Shown: in pieces, positions 3,882 through 56,776 of the stretch
Position numbering within the stretch: position 1 is the first letter of the stretch
Layout: each line of letters starts with the position of its first letter
Sequence record: NC_027378.1
Strand: one strand, 5' to 3'
From: Escherichia phage Seurat
Length of the DNA: 56,776 bases
Made by a program: the position numbers and the translations under genes
The notes under the pieces: model-generated
What the model was told of the DNA's origin: nothing
The model's input: only the letters and a program-made list of their open reading frames with translations
Database searches by the model: none

Positions 3882-4754
3882 ATGAAAAAGAGTTCTGTAG
3901 CTATTAGTGTTGGTATGGCTTTAATTAATCCACGCGCTCGCGGTGAAGGTGATGTGGAACTGGAATACGAATATGCATCTGCGGAAGAGATCCCGGCAGA
4001 GTTTGCAACTCTTTACGCAGAGCAGGGCGGTAAATACGTTCTTGCAAAAGTTAAAGGTGTAGCCCCTGCTGATAGCGTTCGTCGTCTGGAAAGTGCATTG
4101 GCAAAAGAACGTAACGACCATCGTCAGGTGAAGCAACAGATTAGCGCACTTGGGCGTCCGGTTGAAGAAGTCCTTGCGGACCTTGATCGTATCCCTCAAC
4201 TAGAAGCTGCCGCTAACGGTAAAGGTACTCCAGAAGACATCGAAAAGATGGTTAAAGCCCGTCTTGCTCCGCTTGAGCGTCAATTGCAAACTGTAGCAGC
4301 TGAACGCGATTCCGTTAAGCAGGAAATTGAAGGCTACCGCACTCGCGAAACTAAAGCGAAGATTAAAGACGCAGTTATTGCTGCTGCATCCGGCGCTAAG
4401 CTGCGTCCGTCTGCTATCGAAGATGCGGTGACTTATGCACAGTTGCAAATGACCGTCGACGAGAACGGCAATGTGGTTACGAAAGATGGGGCGGGTGTAA
4501 CTCCATACCTAACCCCGGCGGATTGGCTTAACGAGATTCTCCCGAAACGTCCTCACTGGGTTGAGGGTTCTGCTGGTGGCGGTGCATCTGGTCCGGGCGC
4601 TGGCGGTCATCACGGTGAAGACCCATACAGTCACGACGGTTGGAACATCTCTAAGCAGATGAATCTCTGGAAAACTAATCAATCTTTAGCTAAACGCTTA
4701 GCTGAAAAGAATGGCGTAGATCCGCTGAAGCCTGTACGTCCTGCTAAGAAATAA
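3882..4754 (+). CDS. scaffolding protein (putative)
   Basis: 290 aa, charged helical coiled-coil-like sequence between portal and capsid genes. Confidence 0.5.
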   Translation: MKKSSVAISVGMALINPRARGEGDVELEYEYASAEEIPAEFATLYAEQGGKYVLAKVKGVAPADSVRRLESALAKERNDHRQVKQQISALGRPVEEVLADLDRIPQLEAAANGKGTPEDIEKMVKARLAPLERQLQTVAAERDSVKQEIEGYRTRETKAKIKDAVIAAASGAKLRPSAIEDAVTYAQLQMTVDENGNVVTKDGAGVTPYLTPADWLNEILPKRPHWVEGSAGGGASGPGAGGHHGEDPYSHDGWNISKQMNLWKTNQSLAKRLAEKNGVDPLKPVRPAKK

Positions 4755-51098: not shown

Positions 51099-51338
51099 AT
51101 GCGTTTAAAGTATAAGCAAAAGATTGTAGAATACTTCGGGATGCAACTTGTTGTCCCTGAATGGGTTAAATGGCTTGCTGTCGATGGTGATGGGGAGCTG
51201 TACGGTTACGAATGCGAGCCTGATAACTTAGTTGATGAACCGTGGGACGAATGGTACACAGAAGAAGGTAAATGTTACCGCATTACAGAAGTAGTTCTTG
51301 AAGAACATTGGTCTGAAACCTTAGTGGAGCTTTTCTAA
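51099..51338 (+). CDS. small acidic protein, paralogous family member
   Basis: VPEWVKWLAVDGDGELYGYECEPD...EEHWSETLVEL. Confidence 0.5.
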   Translation: MRLKYKQKIVEYFGMQLVVPEWVKWLAVDGDGELYGYECEPDNLVDEPWDEWYTEEGKCYRITEVVLEEHWSETLVELF

Positions 51339-51681: not shown

Positions 51682-51978
51682 ATGCTGTATTTAGGAATGG
51701 ACGAAACTGGACACGCGATTCCTTCCGTTAACAAGGAGACGCAAGTATTTACCGACTATTACGGGTCTGCTGTCCCTGTTGAGCCCTGGGCTAACTTTAT
51801 CGCTGTAGACGCAGACGGTAAAGTACATTGTTATGACGCCAAACCTTCTTGCTATGAATCTGGTAAGCAATGGATGCTTGGCGTATACGGTTTGCATGTT
51901 CGCTACTGCGGCGAAGTTGACATTGAAGGTGTGGACTGGCGCGATACGTTGAAGGAGATTAAAGATGTCCGCGGCTGA
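51682..51978 (+). CDS. small acidic protein, paralogous family member
   Basis: VEPWANFIAVDADGKVHCYDAKPS...GVDWRDTLKEI; RBS GGAGG. Confidence 0.5.
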   Translation: MLYLGMDETGHAIPSVNKETQVFTDYYGSAVPVEPWANFIAVDADGKVHCYDAKPSCYESGKQWMLGVYGLHVRYCGEVDIEGVDWRDTLKEIKDVRG

Positions 51979-52821: not shown

Positions 52822-53087
52822 TTACTGCTCAAGAAGCTCGTGAATTAAGCGATAAGCTGGATATTAGCGAAGATATTGAATTTATCAGTGACAGCATTCG
52901 TGTAGCTGCTACAAAGGGATACAATAAAGTATCACTGGTGACCAAATACGGCGCTGTTGGCAATCCTGACACTCAAGACCCAACCACTATGAAGATCGCT
53001 AAATGGTTAGCCGATTCTGGTTTTACGGTGCTATATTATCCTTCCATGGACCAACGTGATAACGAGCGTACTGAGGTAGCATGGTGA
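52818..53087 (+). CDS. hypothetical protein
   Basis: 89 aa. Confidence 0.45.
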   Translation: MITAQEARELSDKLDISEDIEFISDSIRVAATKGYNKVSLVTKYGAVGNPDTQDPTTMKIAKWLADSGFTVLYYPSMDQRDNERTEVAW

Positions 53088-53155
53088 TTGAAGAAAATAT
53101 CAAATATTGGAAAGGCTTTATTGACGAAATGTTGAAACCATTGGAGAAGAAATAA
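53081..53155 (+). CDS. translationally coupled micro-ORF (24 aa), not in the ORF track
   Basis: ATG overlaps the upstream stop (ATGGTGA) and its TAA overlaps the downstream ATG (TAATG). Confidence 0.35.
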   Translation: MVIEENIKYWKGFIDEMLKPLEKK

Positions 53156-53547
53156 TGCTATTAGTCGTCACCGGAGGTCGAGATTTTAAGCATGTGGAGT
53201 ATATTTACGCTCAATTGGATAAGCTGCATATGCAAAGAAGGATAACCACACTTCGCCACGGTGACGCTGACGGTGTTGACCGGATTTGCGCACATTGGGC
53301 GGAGCGCAACGGTATTAAAACAGAAGCATTCCCTGCCCCGTGGGACAATCTTTCCTTACCAAATACCAAGATACGGTATAATGCCAAAGGTGCTTATAAT
53401 GCACAAGCAGGCGCTTACCGCAACCAATTAATGCTGGATACTGATCCTAAACCAGATCACGCTATTGTGTTTCCTGGCGGAGCTGGTACTATGGATATGT
53501 ACAGACGGATTAAAGCATCCGGTATTCCTTACACTTTAGCGGAGTAA
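53155..53547 (+). CDS. SLOG/LOG-like Rossmann-fold protein (DUF2493-like)
   Basis: VVTGGRDF, GDADGVDR and VFPGGAGTMDM glycine-rich motifs. Confidence 0.45.
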   Translation: MLLVVTGGRDFKHVEYIYAQLDKLHMQRRITTLRHGDADGVDRICAHWAERNGIKTEAFPAPWDNLSLPNTKIRYNAKGAYNAQAGAYRNQLMLDTDPKPDHAIVFPGGAGTMDMYRRIKASGIPYTLAE

Positions 53548-53550
53548 ATA

Positions 53551-54021
53551 ATGGCTGACGTTAAAACTATTGTTGATGCAATGGACGAGTCCAAAGACTG
53601 CCAACTGAAGAAGTCGTTTGAAGTAAAACAGGTTACAGAGACTCAGTTAGTCTGTAATTTTGCGCGTTATTGTGGACTGGGCCGTGGGAAAGACTGGAAC
53701 GGGCTTATTGTTATGCCCACATCACAGATCCTCGTTTACGTCCGCAATATTGTAGAAGATCTTTTGCGTCTTCAAATAGATATTGGTGACGTAGAAATTA
53801 ACATGACCGCGAGCTCTACCATTGTGGTTAAATGGCAGTCGGGCGAGACACTGCGTTTGGAAGCGTGCCATTGTGCTAAGAGCCTACACCACCTGCGCGG
53901 TTGTCATTACCAGTTCGTTGGGTTTGTACATCCGCAAGGGTTAAGCGAGCGTACGGCGCTGGTAGCGCGTTTGCTGCTGCGTCCTTATAATAACGAGCCG
54001 GAAGTTATATACGAGGCATAA
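53551..54021 (+). CDS. hypothetical Cys/His-containing protein
   Basis: 156 aa. Confidence 0.45.
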   Translation: MADVKTIVDAMDESKDCQLKKSFEVKQVTETQLVCNFARYCGLGRGKDWNGLIVMPTSQILVYVRNIVEDLLRLQIDIGDVEINMTASSTIVVKWQSGETLRLEACHCAKSLHHLRGCHYQFVGFVHPQGLSERTALVARLLLRPYNNEPEVIYEA

Positions 54022-54022
54022 A

Positions 54023-54448
54023 ATGTCAGTAAATTTTGTCAAACAGCCAACTTTAAATACATGCGTTTCTGCGTGTTTGGCAATGATCCTTAATAAACCT
54101 GTTGAGGATGTTATTGAGGAATTTCACAATCGATATTATAACAATTGGGAAATTACTATTAGTGAATATTTGACCAAGAATGGAGTTAAACATCACTGTT
54201 GTGAAGGTGGTGGGCGTGAAACTTTGCATATGGGAGGTTTGTTCCTGTGCACGGTGCCAAGTCTTAATATTCCTGGCGCATTGCACCAGATTGTGATTGA
54301 TATGACGGATCACAAGTTTATTGTGCATGATCCAATTAAAGGATGGGAAGGTAAAAAGTTCTATGTTGGTCCGGATCAAGATCCTGAAGAGCTTGGAGCT
54401 TTTATCATTCATACTTGGGTCAAAGACGTTGAAATCCTGCCTTATTAA
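54023..54448 (+). CDS. papain-like cysteine peptidase, C39-like
   Basis: QPTLNTCVSACLAMIL matches the Gln/Cys active-site region of C39 peptidases; downstream His and Asp (HQIVI, IVHDP). Confidence 0.55.
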   Translation: MSVNFVKQPTLNTCVSACLAMILNKPVEDVIEEFHNRYYNNWEITISEYLTKNGVKHHCCEGGGRETLHMGGLFLCTVPSLNIPGALHQIVIDMTDHKFIVHDPIKGWEGKKFYVGPDQDPEELGAFIIHTWVKDVEILPY

Positions 54449-54510
54449 TTTTCTTGCTATCACATAACCCTTCATTGTATTGTGTACCCATCGAATAAGA
54501 GGGGTACACA

Positions 54511-54696
54511 ATGACCAAACTATACGCCGGATTGTTTTTATTTGCGACGTTAATGTTCGCTGGGCTTTATACCTATACAGTAGTCGAACAACCTTCCACG
54601 GTTATCCGAATCTTTGCAAGTACAGGGCTTTGCATCTGTCTTATTCTATTTGTTTTATGCATTGTTATTATCCAAGACCAAAGGAAAGTTAAATGA
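54511..54696 (+). CDS. holin-like small membrane protein (2 TM)
   Basis: 61 aa, two TM helices, basic C-terminus QDQRKVK; RBS AAGAGGGG. Confidence 0.5.
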   Translation: MTKLYAGLFLFATLMFAGLYTYTVVEQPSTVIRIFASTGLCICLILFVLCIVIIQDQRKVK

Positions 54697-55157
54697 CCAC
54701 AATTGCGTTTGATGGAAAAGTATTAGCTGCGGACCGTGGCGTTATGCGCGGGGAAGCTGTGACTGCTTATAAGAAAGTTCATAGCGTGAATGGACATCGT
54801 GGACGGTTTTTACTGGGCTTGTGCGGTTTGACGGCATTTACCGATCAGGTGTTGCGTTATTTTAATAGCGCGGAACCTGTTAAGTTCCCTGATATTAAAC
54901 TTTACAGCAAAGATGATGATTACGGGCAAACTTGCGGTCTTGCTGTCACTCCGGAAGGTACTTGCCATTTTATTTATAATGATGGTACTTTGAGCGAGCC
55001 CATGCTGGATGGATGGGGATCTGAGGGTAGCGGTTGTGTGTTTGCTGCTGGCGCATTAGCTGCTGGTGCAAGTGCAAGCGAAGCTATTGAGCTGGCAATT
55101 AAACACACCACATGCGCATTCCTGGGAGTTGATACAATATCATTTGAGGGTTTTTAA
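54693..55157 (+). CDS. HslV/proteasome-like Ntn-hydrolase (putative Thr peptidase)
   Basis: N-terminal MTTIAFDGKVLAADRG (Thr after Met), YKKV, GSEGSGCVFAAGALAAG...SASEAIELAIK colinear with HslV. Confidence 0.55.
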   Translation: MTTIAFDGKVLAADRGVMRGEAVTAYKKVHSVNGHRGRFLLGLCGLTAFTDQVLRYFNSAEPVKFPDIKLYSKDDDYGQTCGLAVTPEGTCHFIYNDGTLSEPMLDGWGSEGSGCVFAAGALAAGASASEAIELAIKHTTCAFLGVDTISFEGF

Positions 55158-55418
55158 ATGACTACATTCAGTCACCTGATCCCACCTGCTTATCATAGTA
55201 AGGTAGTTGACCACGGGACGCATGTTGTAATTGGTGGCGAAATCTTTATCACAGATAACGAGGAAATCGCCATTGCAATTATTGACAGCACTCAGCATGA
55301 CTTTATGGTTATCCTGCAACACGAACCAGATAACTTCACTTTTTACTCCAGCTACGGGGTCGATAAAGGTGGAAAAAGCCTTGTTAGCTGGTACATTAGC
55401 GAGTGGTTTGACGGGTAA
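55158..55418 (+). CDS. hypothetical protein
   Basis: 86 aa; RBS GAGGG. Confidence 0.45.
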   Translation: MTTFSHLIPPAYHSKVVDHGTHVVIGGEIFITDNEEIAIAIIDSTQHDFMVILQHEPDNFTFYSSYGVDKGGKSLVSWYISEWFDG

Positions 55419-55500
55419 TCTCCTTAGATCAATTCTCCTTGCGCCGTATCAAGTTTCTCTGTTACCCTTGAGTGGTTCATGTCAAGCGGAGGAACTCGAT

Positions 55501-55938
55501 ATGGCACTTCAACCTCGTGGTATTCGTAATAACAATCCAGGCAATATTCGCTGGGGTGATAATTGGCAGGGCTTAGTTCCTGCTGATAAGCGAACCGATA
55601 AATCTTTTGCTCAATTCACGCAACCGATTTACGGCATTCGTGCGCTAGCGAAAATCCTGACAAACTACACCAAACGTGAAGGCTTACCCAATGTGGGTAA
55701 GAAAAACATCGACACTGTACGTGAAATTATCGCTCGCTGGGCACCGCCTAACGAAAACGATACGGAAGCGTATATTCGCTCTGTTGCCAAAGCAATTGGT
55801 GTTCAACCTAACGATCCAATTAATGTCTTCGACAAGGCAATTATGTCAGGATTGGTGAAAGCAATCATTCGTCATGAAAATGGCATGATGCCCTATACCG
55901 ACGACGTAATTAACCGCGCTATTGCAATGGTACTTTAA
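55501..55938 (+). CDS. hypothetical protein, positional candidate endolysin
   Basis: Start reset to the ATG at 55501 (RBS GGAGG); lies between holin-like and spanin genes; no catalytic motif recognised. Confidence 0.35.
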   Translation: MALQPRGIRNNNPGNIRWGDNWQGLVPADKRTDKSFAQFTQPIYGIRALAKILTNYTKREGLPNVGKKNIDTVREIIARWAPPNENDTEAYIRSVAKAIGVQPNDPINVFDKAIMSGLVKAIIRHENGMMPYTDDVINRAIAMVL

Positions 55939-55974
55939 CTGACGGGGCGTTAGCCCCTTTTATTTGGAGGGAAC

Positions 55975-56319
55975 ATGTTCAATTCACCCAACGAACATTG
56001 GGCAGTTCTAGCGGGGTTTGCGTTTATCTCCCTCATTGGGGGAGCTCTCGGTTATGTCATGCGTACAATAGACGCTGGTAAGAAAGTACGGGCAAGCATT
56101 GCATTTCTTGAAGGCTTATCCGCCGCTTTCTTTGGCGTTATAATGTATGCGATCTACAGGGAGTTTAACATCAGCCTTTGGTTCGCTTTTGGCCTTGCTG
56201 GCCTATTTGCTTGGGCAGGTTCACGTGCTACGCTAAAAGCCCTAACGTCGCTTATAGCTTCACGGACAGGGATCAAACTCGATTCAGGGGACTGCAAACA
56301 TGAAAACGATTCTAAATAA
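55975..56319 (+). CDS. membrane protein (3 TM), holin-like
   Basis: 114 aa; three hydrophobic helices; RBS GGAGGG; just upstream of the spanins. Confidence 0.45.
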   Translation: MFNSPNEHWAVLAGFAFISLIGGALGYVMRTIDAGKKVRASIAFLEGLSAAFFGVIMYAIYREFNISLWFAFGLAGLFAWAGSRATLKALTSLIASRTGIKLDSGDCKHENDSK

Positions 56320-56776
56320 CTTCTTCGGTTTTATAAAAACTAAACCGCGTCTGTTTATCGAGTATTTGATGATCGGCGCGGTTGTGTTTTTATGCGGGGT
56401 GGCTGCATACTTGTGGTCACAGAACGAGCTTAGCAAAACTAATTTAAATCATGCTGAGCAAAGACTAACTGTTGTAGAACAGGACAATGCAAAGCTGGGC
56501 GAAGCTGTTGTATTTCTTGCATCCCAACGGGAGAAGGATACTGAATCCTATCGAAAATTGGCTTCAGCAATTGAAAGTGAGCAACATAACCACAGGTTGC
56601 TTCAGGACAAATTAAAAGCACTGGAGAAAAGCAATGCCGACGTCAAAGCTTATCTTAATGAGCGTGTTCCTGATGATTTGCGCAGGCTGCTCGACGGAGA
56701 TACAACCTCCACCACCGCCGCAGATAGTGAAGATAAAACTTCCGGCTCATCTGTTGGTAGAATGTCGGGAAGTTGA
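56300..56776 (+). CDS. i-spanin (Rz-like)
   Basis: N-terminal TM helix then charged coiled-coil periplasmic domain; embedded +1 frame lipoprotein ORF. Confidence 0.65.
   Translation: MKTILNNFFGFIKTKPRLFIEYLMIGAVVFLCGVAAYLWSQNELSKTNLNHAEQRLTVVEQDNAKLGEAVVFLASQREKDTESYRKLASAIESEQHNHRLLQDKLKALEKSNADVKAYLNERVPDDLRRLLDGDTTSTTAADSEDKTSGSSVGRMSGS
56634..56776 (+). CDS. o-spanin (Rz1-like lipoprotein), 3'-truncated at the window end
   Basis: +1 frame inside the i-spanin gene; MPTSKLILMSVFLMICAGCST signal/lipobox-like start then PPPPPQ; no stop before the window end. Confidence 0.55.
   Translation, partial: MPTSKLILMSVFLMICAGCSTEIQPPPPPQIVKIKLPAHLLVECREV

Follow-up and report, generated by a model that had tools for sequence, protein, structure and literature searches.

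C39 peptidases have long been viewed as leader-peptide trimmers attached to exporters. Not until 2025-2026 was it demonstrated that free C39 domains can be intracellular toxins, cleaving gyrase and topoisomerase (topo) IV. Cpe1, of a type VI secretion system (PMC12136450), and StbD-CT, of a contact-dependent inhibition system (bioRxiv 10.64898/2026.05.07.723447), are C39 enzymes whose cleavage site is the Gly-Gly of LHAGGKF in the GyrB and ParE ATPase domains; neither paper discusses phage homologs. Here we report that Escherichia phage Seurat (NC_027378.1; its full 56,776 nucleotides [nt] are referred to as the window) encodes a predicted stand-alone C39-like cysteine peptidase of 141 amino acids (aa) at positions 54023 to 54448 on the plus strand, read from an ATG start with the translation quoted in the original prediction. 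The product is the ortholog of CAjan gp84 (YP_009196878), annotated "hypothetical protein," and from 53000 to 56776 the window shares 98% identity with phages KS_A8 and CAjan (CAjan-like Seuratvirus, Queuovirinae; E. coli siphophage). We lean toward reading the protein as a soluble cytoplasmic endopeptidase of the C39 branch that cuts a specific protein, probably one of the host.

The original prediction, made from the DNA letters alone, had recognized the Gln-x5-Cys region of C39 active sites in QPTLNTCVSACLAMIL (residues 8 to 23) and candidate His and Asp residues in the segments HQIVI and IVHDP. All of these assignments held up in an alignment of 113 divergent family members (mean column identity, 24%), in which the pattern reads Q8-x5-C14-x3-C18, H88, and D103-P104. 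Gln8 (codon at 54044 to 54046, plus strand, as are all codons given here), the predicted oxyanion-hole residue, is kept in 112 of 113 members and aligns to the conserved Gln of LahT and PCAT1. The predicted nucleophile, Cys14, opens a C-x3-C motif (CVSAC; codons at 54062 to 54076); Cys14 is likewise kept in 112 members, the remaining one having Ser, and Cys18 is kept in 103. His88 (54284 to 54286), the predicted general base, is present in all 113 members, in register with the His of NHFVVL in LahT. The same holds for Asp103-Pro104 (54329 to 54334), the predicted third catalytic residue and its DP motif, in register with INDP in LahT and VADP in PCAT1. His102 of IVHDP is not conserved and is Tyr, Leu, or Phe in most members. 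The complete Gln/Cys/His/Asp tetrad is kept in 111 of 113 members (the exceptions are Cys to Ser and Gln to Thr), and such near-absolute conservation, as judged from the alignment, is not a chance match and argues for a catalytically competent protein.

These motifs are shared, in register, with classical C39 domains (PCAT1, LahT/AMS, ComA, and CvaB; PF03412; MEROPS C39), which carry a Gln-x5-Cys...Cys-x2-Ala-x-Leu-x-Met helix followed by His...Asp-Pro. Residues Q8, C14, A17, L19, and M21 of the phage protein are the counterparts in the cysteine motif, which aligns to QMEALECGAASLAM in LahT and QYDLTDCGAACL in PCAT1, and the classical His-x-[IV]-V...Asp-Pro is matched by H88-QIV...H-D103-P104. 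The size is near that of classical C39 domains (about 140 aa), and the C-x3-C spacing equals that of CGAAC in PCAT1. The His-to-Asp spacing is 15 in the phage protein versus 16 in the LahT and PCAT1 fragments; across the family it is 15 in 55 members and 16 in 35. Unlike classical C39 enzymes, the phage proteins have conserved motifs of their own (EFH at residues 33 to 35, VPSLN at 78 to 82, and Y114), and the Pfam score of the Seurat protein falls under the gathering cutoff.

Structure prediction points the same way. AlphaFold2 run on the 113-sequence alignment returned a model with a mean predicted local distance difference test (pLDDT) score of 95.9 and a predicted template modeling score of 0.90; an earlier AlphaFold run on 13 close homologs had reached a pLDDT of 65. 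The Foldseek top match of the AlphaFold2 model is PCAT1, and among solved structures the nearest are C39 double-glycine peptidase domains. Neighbors in BFVD are uncharacterized phage proteins and one Bacillus phage protein automatically named "Peptidase C39 domain-containing protein." The modeled fold is papain-like alpha+beta, of the C39 branch, and we place the family in the C39 group as a divergent branch of single-domain proteins carried by phages. Inspection of the protein sequence revealed no transporter domain, signal peptide, or hydrophobic segment. The proposal of a stand-alone, 141-aa, C39-like papain fold lacking a transporter domain was thus borne out by the fold, by the register with LahT and PCAT1, and by the single-domain open reading frame (ORF).

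Profile comparisons supported the C39 assignment at the level of the family and less so for the protein itself. Pfam Peptidase_C39 is the only family matched recurrently, with individual hits at E ≤ 0.01 for 10 of the 113 relatives (best E, 2.4e-6); the match of the Seurat protein to PF03412 covers residues 3 to 25 only (E 0.034, 14.4 bits). When the family was aligned to LahT plus PCAT1 with hhalign, the local alignment, covering the Cys motif, had 87% probability and a pairwise E value of 3.8e-6; in global mode, 99 columns stayed in register. In a separate alignment of the family profile to LahT, the Gln, Cys, His, and Asp-Pro fell on the LahT motifs. The protein matches PHROG 4049 over its full length (E 2.1e-57; residues 2 to 140 against profile positions 2 to 140 of 145); that PHROG carries no functional annotation, and the C39 assignment is new relative to it. 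NCBIfam and PADLOC searches returned no match.

The family is large. An exhaustive hidden Markov model (HMM) search of 1.84 billion representatives, with an alignment of close relatives as the query, retrieved 709 proteins at E ≤ 1e-3, of which 355 reached E ≤ 1e-10; most of them stand alone and are 135 to 160 aa long. A word-indexed search retrieved close relatives only. In GenBank, 188 phage records carry the family, from Seuratvirus, Nonagvirus, Ackermannviridae, Mydovirus, Samunavirus, Enhodamvirus, Vibrio phages, and others, and every copy is annotated as hypothetical. Phages therefore carry a large family of free-standing C39-like enzymes that look catalytically intact (709 sequence clusters, 188 sequenced phages). 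Its carriers include coliphages of the BASEL collection, and no database names it. In a 2023 classification of papain-like peptidases, C39 is the exporter-fused group, C39_2 comprises single-domain proteins, and no comparable phage family is described. The label of predicted C39-like cysteine peptidase can now be given to PHROG 4049 and to its members listed in GenBank as "hypothetical proteins."

The phage protein is not a classical C39 enzyme, since neither an exporter nor a leader substrate accompanies it. Unlike the classical enzymes, it is phage encoded, presumably cytoplasmic, and neither fused to nor encoded with an ABC exporter, none of which was found in this region of the window or in the CAjan genome. 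A pattern scan of the window's ORFs of at least 25 aa, with all start codons allowed, found no double-glycine-leader ORF on the coding strand. The search for leader peptides among the small phage ORFs thus came back empty, and the suggestion that the enzyme processes them was not upheld. The degenerate C39-like domains of HlyB-type transporters (3ZUA and 3B79) lack the catalytic Cys and serve in substrate binding only; the phage family differs from them in its complete catalytic tetrad, which all but two members keep. Peptidase_C39_2 (PF13529) is also a poor fit: the Bacillus anthracis representative 3ERV is larger (200 aa), and no family member among the 113 matches PF13529. C39_2 enzymes are described as carrying more structural decorations and occurring in transporter-associated contexts (PMC10318531).

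In the reading we favor, the predicted enzyme would cut after a small-residue motif of the Gly-Gly type, as all characterized C39 enzymes do. It would act on a specific intracellular protein, or on a small number of them, most likely of the host, and its role would be that of an accessory factor in host takeover or counter-defense, not one in leader processing, virion maturation, or lysis. In this phage it would probably act in concert with an HslV-like peptidase encoded two genes downstream. Cpe1 (PMC12136450) and StbD-CT (bioRxiv 10.64898/2026.05.07.723447) provide the precedent of C39 peptidases that act in the cytoplasm on host proteins. The original prediction had left the substrate as either phage or host; processing of such a substrate is still a live idea, with the evidence favoring a cytoplasmic protein target and a phage protein rated low. 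More tentatively, these proteins may form an unrecognized class of early phage "weapon" proteases, free C39-type endopeptidases that would disable a host protein by one Gly-Gly-directed cut and that would form a two-protease module with the HslV-like peptidase in Queuovirinae. That host protein could be the B subunit of gyrase or of topo IV, or it could belong to a ubiquitin-like (Ubl) or other defense pathway. If host proteins are indeed cleaved, the family would offer a new, tractable mechanism of host takeover or counter-defense and a source of sequence-specific proteases.

Several observations weigh against this reading. The Pfam C39 score of 14.4 bits is under the 22-bit gathering cutoff, and neither the single protein nor either of two profiles had a significant match in HMM and sequence searches of the PDB, so that the family is resolved by fold comparison only. 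The Gly-Gly specificity would be extrapolated from relatives at about 18 to 23% identity. The endolysin-holin-spanin cassette lies only about 1 kb downstream of the gene, on the same strand, a synteny kept in three Queuovirinae lineages, which leaves some room for a lysis-linked role in that clade. With respect to gyrase, only 39 of 284 Ackermannviridae records hold a C39-like gene at the topo II junction described below, and no topoisomerase was found in the CAjan genome, so that destruction of gyrase might harm CAjan-type phages.

Genomic context bears on the lysis question. We compared 80 IMG/VR loci and the window, which yielded 79 usable loci in 17 lineages at 60% identity. In three lineages (51 of 79 loci), the C39-like gene lies one to five genes downstream of O-like and DnaC-like replication genes, and replication and nin-region neighbors occur in lineages 0, 1, and 8. 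A PHROG scan of 58 same-strand neighbors identified an O-like initiator, a DnaC-like loader, helicases, NinB, NinG, methyltransferases, topo II, HNH, and HslV; none of the 25 families listed in that scan is a structural or lysis family. The copies in phiVC8, SM1, and BIS47 are in early or small-ORF regions (near a helicase gene in phiVC8 and within strings of small hypothetical ORFs in SM1 and BIS47), and that of JM-2012 adjoins a dTMP kinase gene.

The original prediction had also raised a cell-wall peptidase acting in lysis. Such an accessory factor could be a peptidoglycan or Lpp-linkage peptidase or amidase released via the holin, or a protease of a lysis regulator. Its position on the same strand upstream of the endolysin, holin, and spanin genes fits this, and canonical endolysins need no signal peptide. 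However, the gene is far from lysis genes in most lineages, the phage already has a complete endolysin/holin/spanin set, and the best structural neighbors are C39 domains that cleave proteins or peptides. No CHAP, NlpC/P60, Peptidase_C39_2, or amidase family was matched by any of the 113 members. Nor did any lysin catalytic family of the papain-fold type, the group that includes PeiW and PeiR, give a profile match. Because the gene lies elsewhere among replication, nin, and nucleotide metabolism genes, nearness to the lysis cassette is a peculiarity of Queuovirinae and argues against a lysin. A lysis function is thus improbable, and action on an intracellular, probably host, protein remains the reading we prefer.

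The toxins raise a more specific proposal for that target. Cpe1 and StbD-CT (PDB 8SSM) have a Cys/His/Asp triad and a second Cys four residues on, as in the phage protein, whose C-x3-C spacing equals that of Cys183/Cys187 in StbD-CT. Their substrate is a folded host protein in the cytoplasm of the target cell rather than an export leader, and they so exemplify a free C39 domain as a weapon. They differ in having a delivery module (PAAR, VgrG, Rhs, or CdiA), an entry domain, and an adjacent immunity gene, all of which the phage protein lacks; as for a cognate immunity gene, no neighbor is conserved across all lineages. We also considered whether the longer members of the family might be toxin cassettes that include an entry domain; they are not, and their fusions are to phage-type domains (MazG-like, YunG-like, Zn-ribbon, or unassigned).

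By analogy, the phage enzyme could cut GyrB and ParE at the Gly-Gly loop of LHAGGKF, stopping host replication and segregation, while phages with their own T4/eukaryote-type topo II would be immune. C39-fold enzymes with exactly that activity exist in Cpe1 and StbD-CT, the C-x3-C motif is as in the toxin, and the Cys-to-His spacing is similar (75 versus 74 residues). In Kuttervirus EP75 (at 3972 to 4423) and Agtrevirus Ag3, the homolog lies between the genes for the large and medium subunits of topo II, with overlapping stop and start codons, and the phage topo II has LYAGSNF, without Gly-Gly, at the equivalent site. YAGSN is, however, the ancestral state of T4/eukaryote-type topo II and not an adaptation. 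The idea of a topo II "operon" was largely rejected when a junction search revealed a variable slot common to homing endonucleases: beyond the 39 records with the C39-like gene, the topo II genes abut in most, and a GIY-YIG or HNH homing endonuclease occupies the junction in some (PP856728 and PQ863687). The junction is an insertion hot spot in which the C39-like gene is accessory, and the link to GyrB and ParE is therefore weak. Further points against it are that the PHROG neighbor scan found no independent topo II association in the other 16 lineages and that the HMM search of PDB sequences revealed no similarity to the toxin. CAjan-type and lambdoid-type carriers lack a topoisomerase and may need host gyrase, which lambda requires. 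GyrB and ParE are the best-motivated substrate candidates and are weakly supported; we consider them unlikely targets.

In this clade the gene is strictly paired with a second peptidase gene. Two genes downstream (54693 to 55157, plus strand), the window encodes an HslV-like peptidase of the N-terminal nucleophile type (Thr2; phrog_1040, E 5.4e-32). Its product has a weak Pfam Proteasome match and is shorter than host HslV; by eye, the Thr, Lys, and Ser-Gly positions of E. coli HslV are kept. It starts with MTTIA and has no propeptide. An HslV-like gene follows the C39-like gene in 12 of 12 loci of four lineages, across HslV divergence reaching E values of 1e-6 to 1e-16. Conversely, the C39-like gene is just upstream in all 17 loci retrieved via HslV-like proteins (down to 28% identity), all of which are Queuovirinae-type phages of roughly 60 kb and represent one viral clade. 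The pair has been retained while the genes between its members changed, and this conserved pairing points to an unexplored phage proteolysis module. Most family members reside in phages without HslV.

An alternative is that the C39-like enzyme processes phage proteins, either maturing a precursor or activating or turning over the HslV-like peptidase or another phage factor. The strict co-occurrence in Queuovirinae-type phages is consistent with this, and the C39 domain of StbD-CT processes itself at an internal Gly-Gly, to which the Gly-Gly-Gly loop at G62 to G64, invariant in the close clade, might correspond. Activation of the HslV-like peptidase is hard to reconcile with its MTTIA start, which would expose the Thr nucleophile by Met removal alone, and the fact that most members are in phages without HslV also speaks against this alternative. 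In addition, no partner ORF is conserved across all lineages, the scan found no double-glycine-leader ORF, and the loop is not conserved family-wide. We rate processing of a phage protein as quite unlikely and a host target as the better account. The loop itself (codons at 54206 to 54214) is invariant in the Seuratvirus-proximal clade (at least 60% identity) and falls in the least confident internal segment of the AlphaFold2 model; if the enzyme processes itself as StbD-CT does, this loop is a candidate site.

Two further gene families recur beside the C39-like protein. A MazG-like pyrophosphatase appears in three contexts: as an N-terminal fusion in family member P0158 (E 1.5e-10), as the adjacent upstream gene in lineage 5, and as the second gene upstream in Ackermannviridae. 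A domain of PHROG 1972, a family without assigned function, is fused N-terminally to family member P0016, and the window carries two paralogous PHROG 1972 ORFs at 51099 to 51338 and 51682 to 51978 (79 and 98 aa), with the motif W/F-x-A-V-D-x-D-G-x4-Y-x3-P. The fusion hints at a functional link between this domain and the C39-like protein.

In a counter-defense variant, the enzyme would be a Gly-Gly-directed deconjugase or "clippase" against Ubl defenses (Bil, priming by Cap2 in type II CBASS, and related Ubl operons), removing or trimming the C terminus of the Ubl or the CD-NTase. Ubl proteases and C39 enzymes alike cut after Gly-Gly, and the patchy accessory distribution of the family and its conflict-type neighbors (MazG and SLOG/YspA) fit such a role. 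For Bil, one report gives the central tail fiber of siphophages as the target (bioRxiv 10.1101/2023.09.04.556158). Neither the literature nor the genomic evidence links the family to any Ubl system. The E. coli K-12 isolation hosts are not known to carry such Ubl systems, and this variant seems very unlikely. Literature searches on stand-alone phage C39 enzymes, phage papain-like anti-defense proteases, phage HslV, phage-induced GyrB cleavage, Bil counter-defense, and the PDB entry "P210 CD lyase" yielded nothing relevant beyond the two toxin papers.

The SLOG-domain protein is encoded two genes upstream of the peptidase (53155 to 53547; YspA/cpYpsA-related; PF10686, E 4.9e-18), and its CAjan counterpart is annotated "GTP-binding domain." Domains of the SLOG type bind nucleotides and are typical modules in conflict systems. 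Between it and the peptidase gene is a 156-aa ORF without assigned function (53551 to 54021, plus strand; phrog_25149, E 1.8e-111). This ORF is lineage specific, being missing from the other lineages in neighbor clustering, and is not a conserved partner of the C39-like gene. Its TAA stop codon (54019 to 54021) leaves 1 nt before the C39-like ATG; translation of the two genes is therefore probably coupled. A Shine-Dalgarno sequence, GAGG, is located at 54013 to 54016 on the plus strand, 6 nt 5' of that ATG.

Downstream of the C39-like gene, a 61-aa ORF with two hydrophobic segments (54511 to 54696, plus strand) separates the two peptidase genes. It belongs to phrog_22841 (E 4.6e-45), a family without assigned function, is specific to the Seuratvirus lineage, and matches no recognized holin family and no Pfam entry. 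This is probably the "holin-like gene" of the original prediction, which had placed the peptidase upstream of it: the adjacent two-segment ORF stands, and the holin label does not, as the recognizable holin is a LydA-type gene five genes downstream of the C39-like gene (55975 to 56319, plus strand; PF16083, E 4.8e-10). The 62-nt gap 3' of the C39-like gene contains an RNA hairpin (54478 to 54513, plus strand; minimum free energy, -20.1 kcal/mol; z, -3.08) that sequesters by pairing the Shine-Dalgarno sequence (AAGAGGGG) and AUG of the 61-aa ORF. With no T-run and no terminator call, the hairpin has the look of an element that occludes translation of this ORF, not of a terminator.

The endolysin gene (PHROG 873) lies at about 55501 to 55938, on the same strand as the C39-like gene. 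Its longest ORF, 55231 to 55938, opens at TTG and would encode 235 aa; the CAjan product is 145 aa and starts near 55501, and PHROG 873 covers only this C-terminal part. The first 90 codons of the longer ORF, which overlap the ORF at 55158 to 55418, are probably untranslated. Base composition gave no foreign-DNA signal. On the opposite strand, a 152-aa shadow ORF (54053 to 54511) overlaps the C39-like gene and exceeds it in length, and it misled a longest-ORF gene caller at this locus and in 22 related loci.

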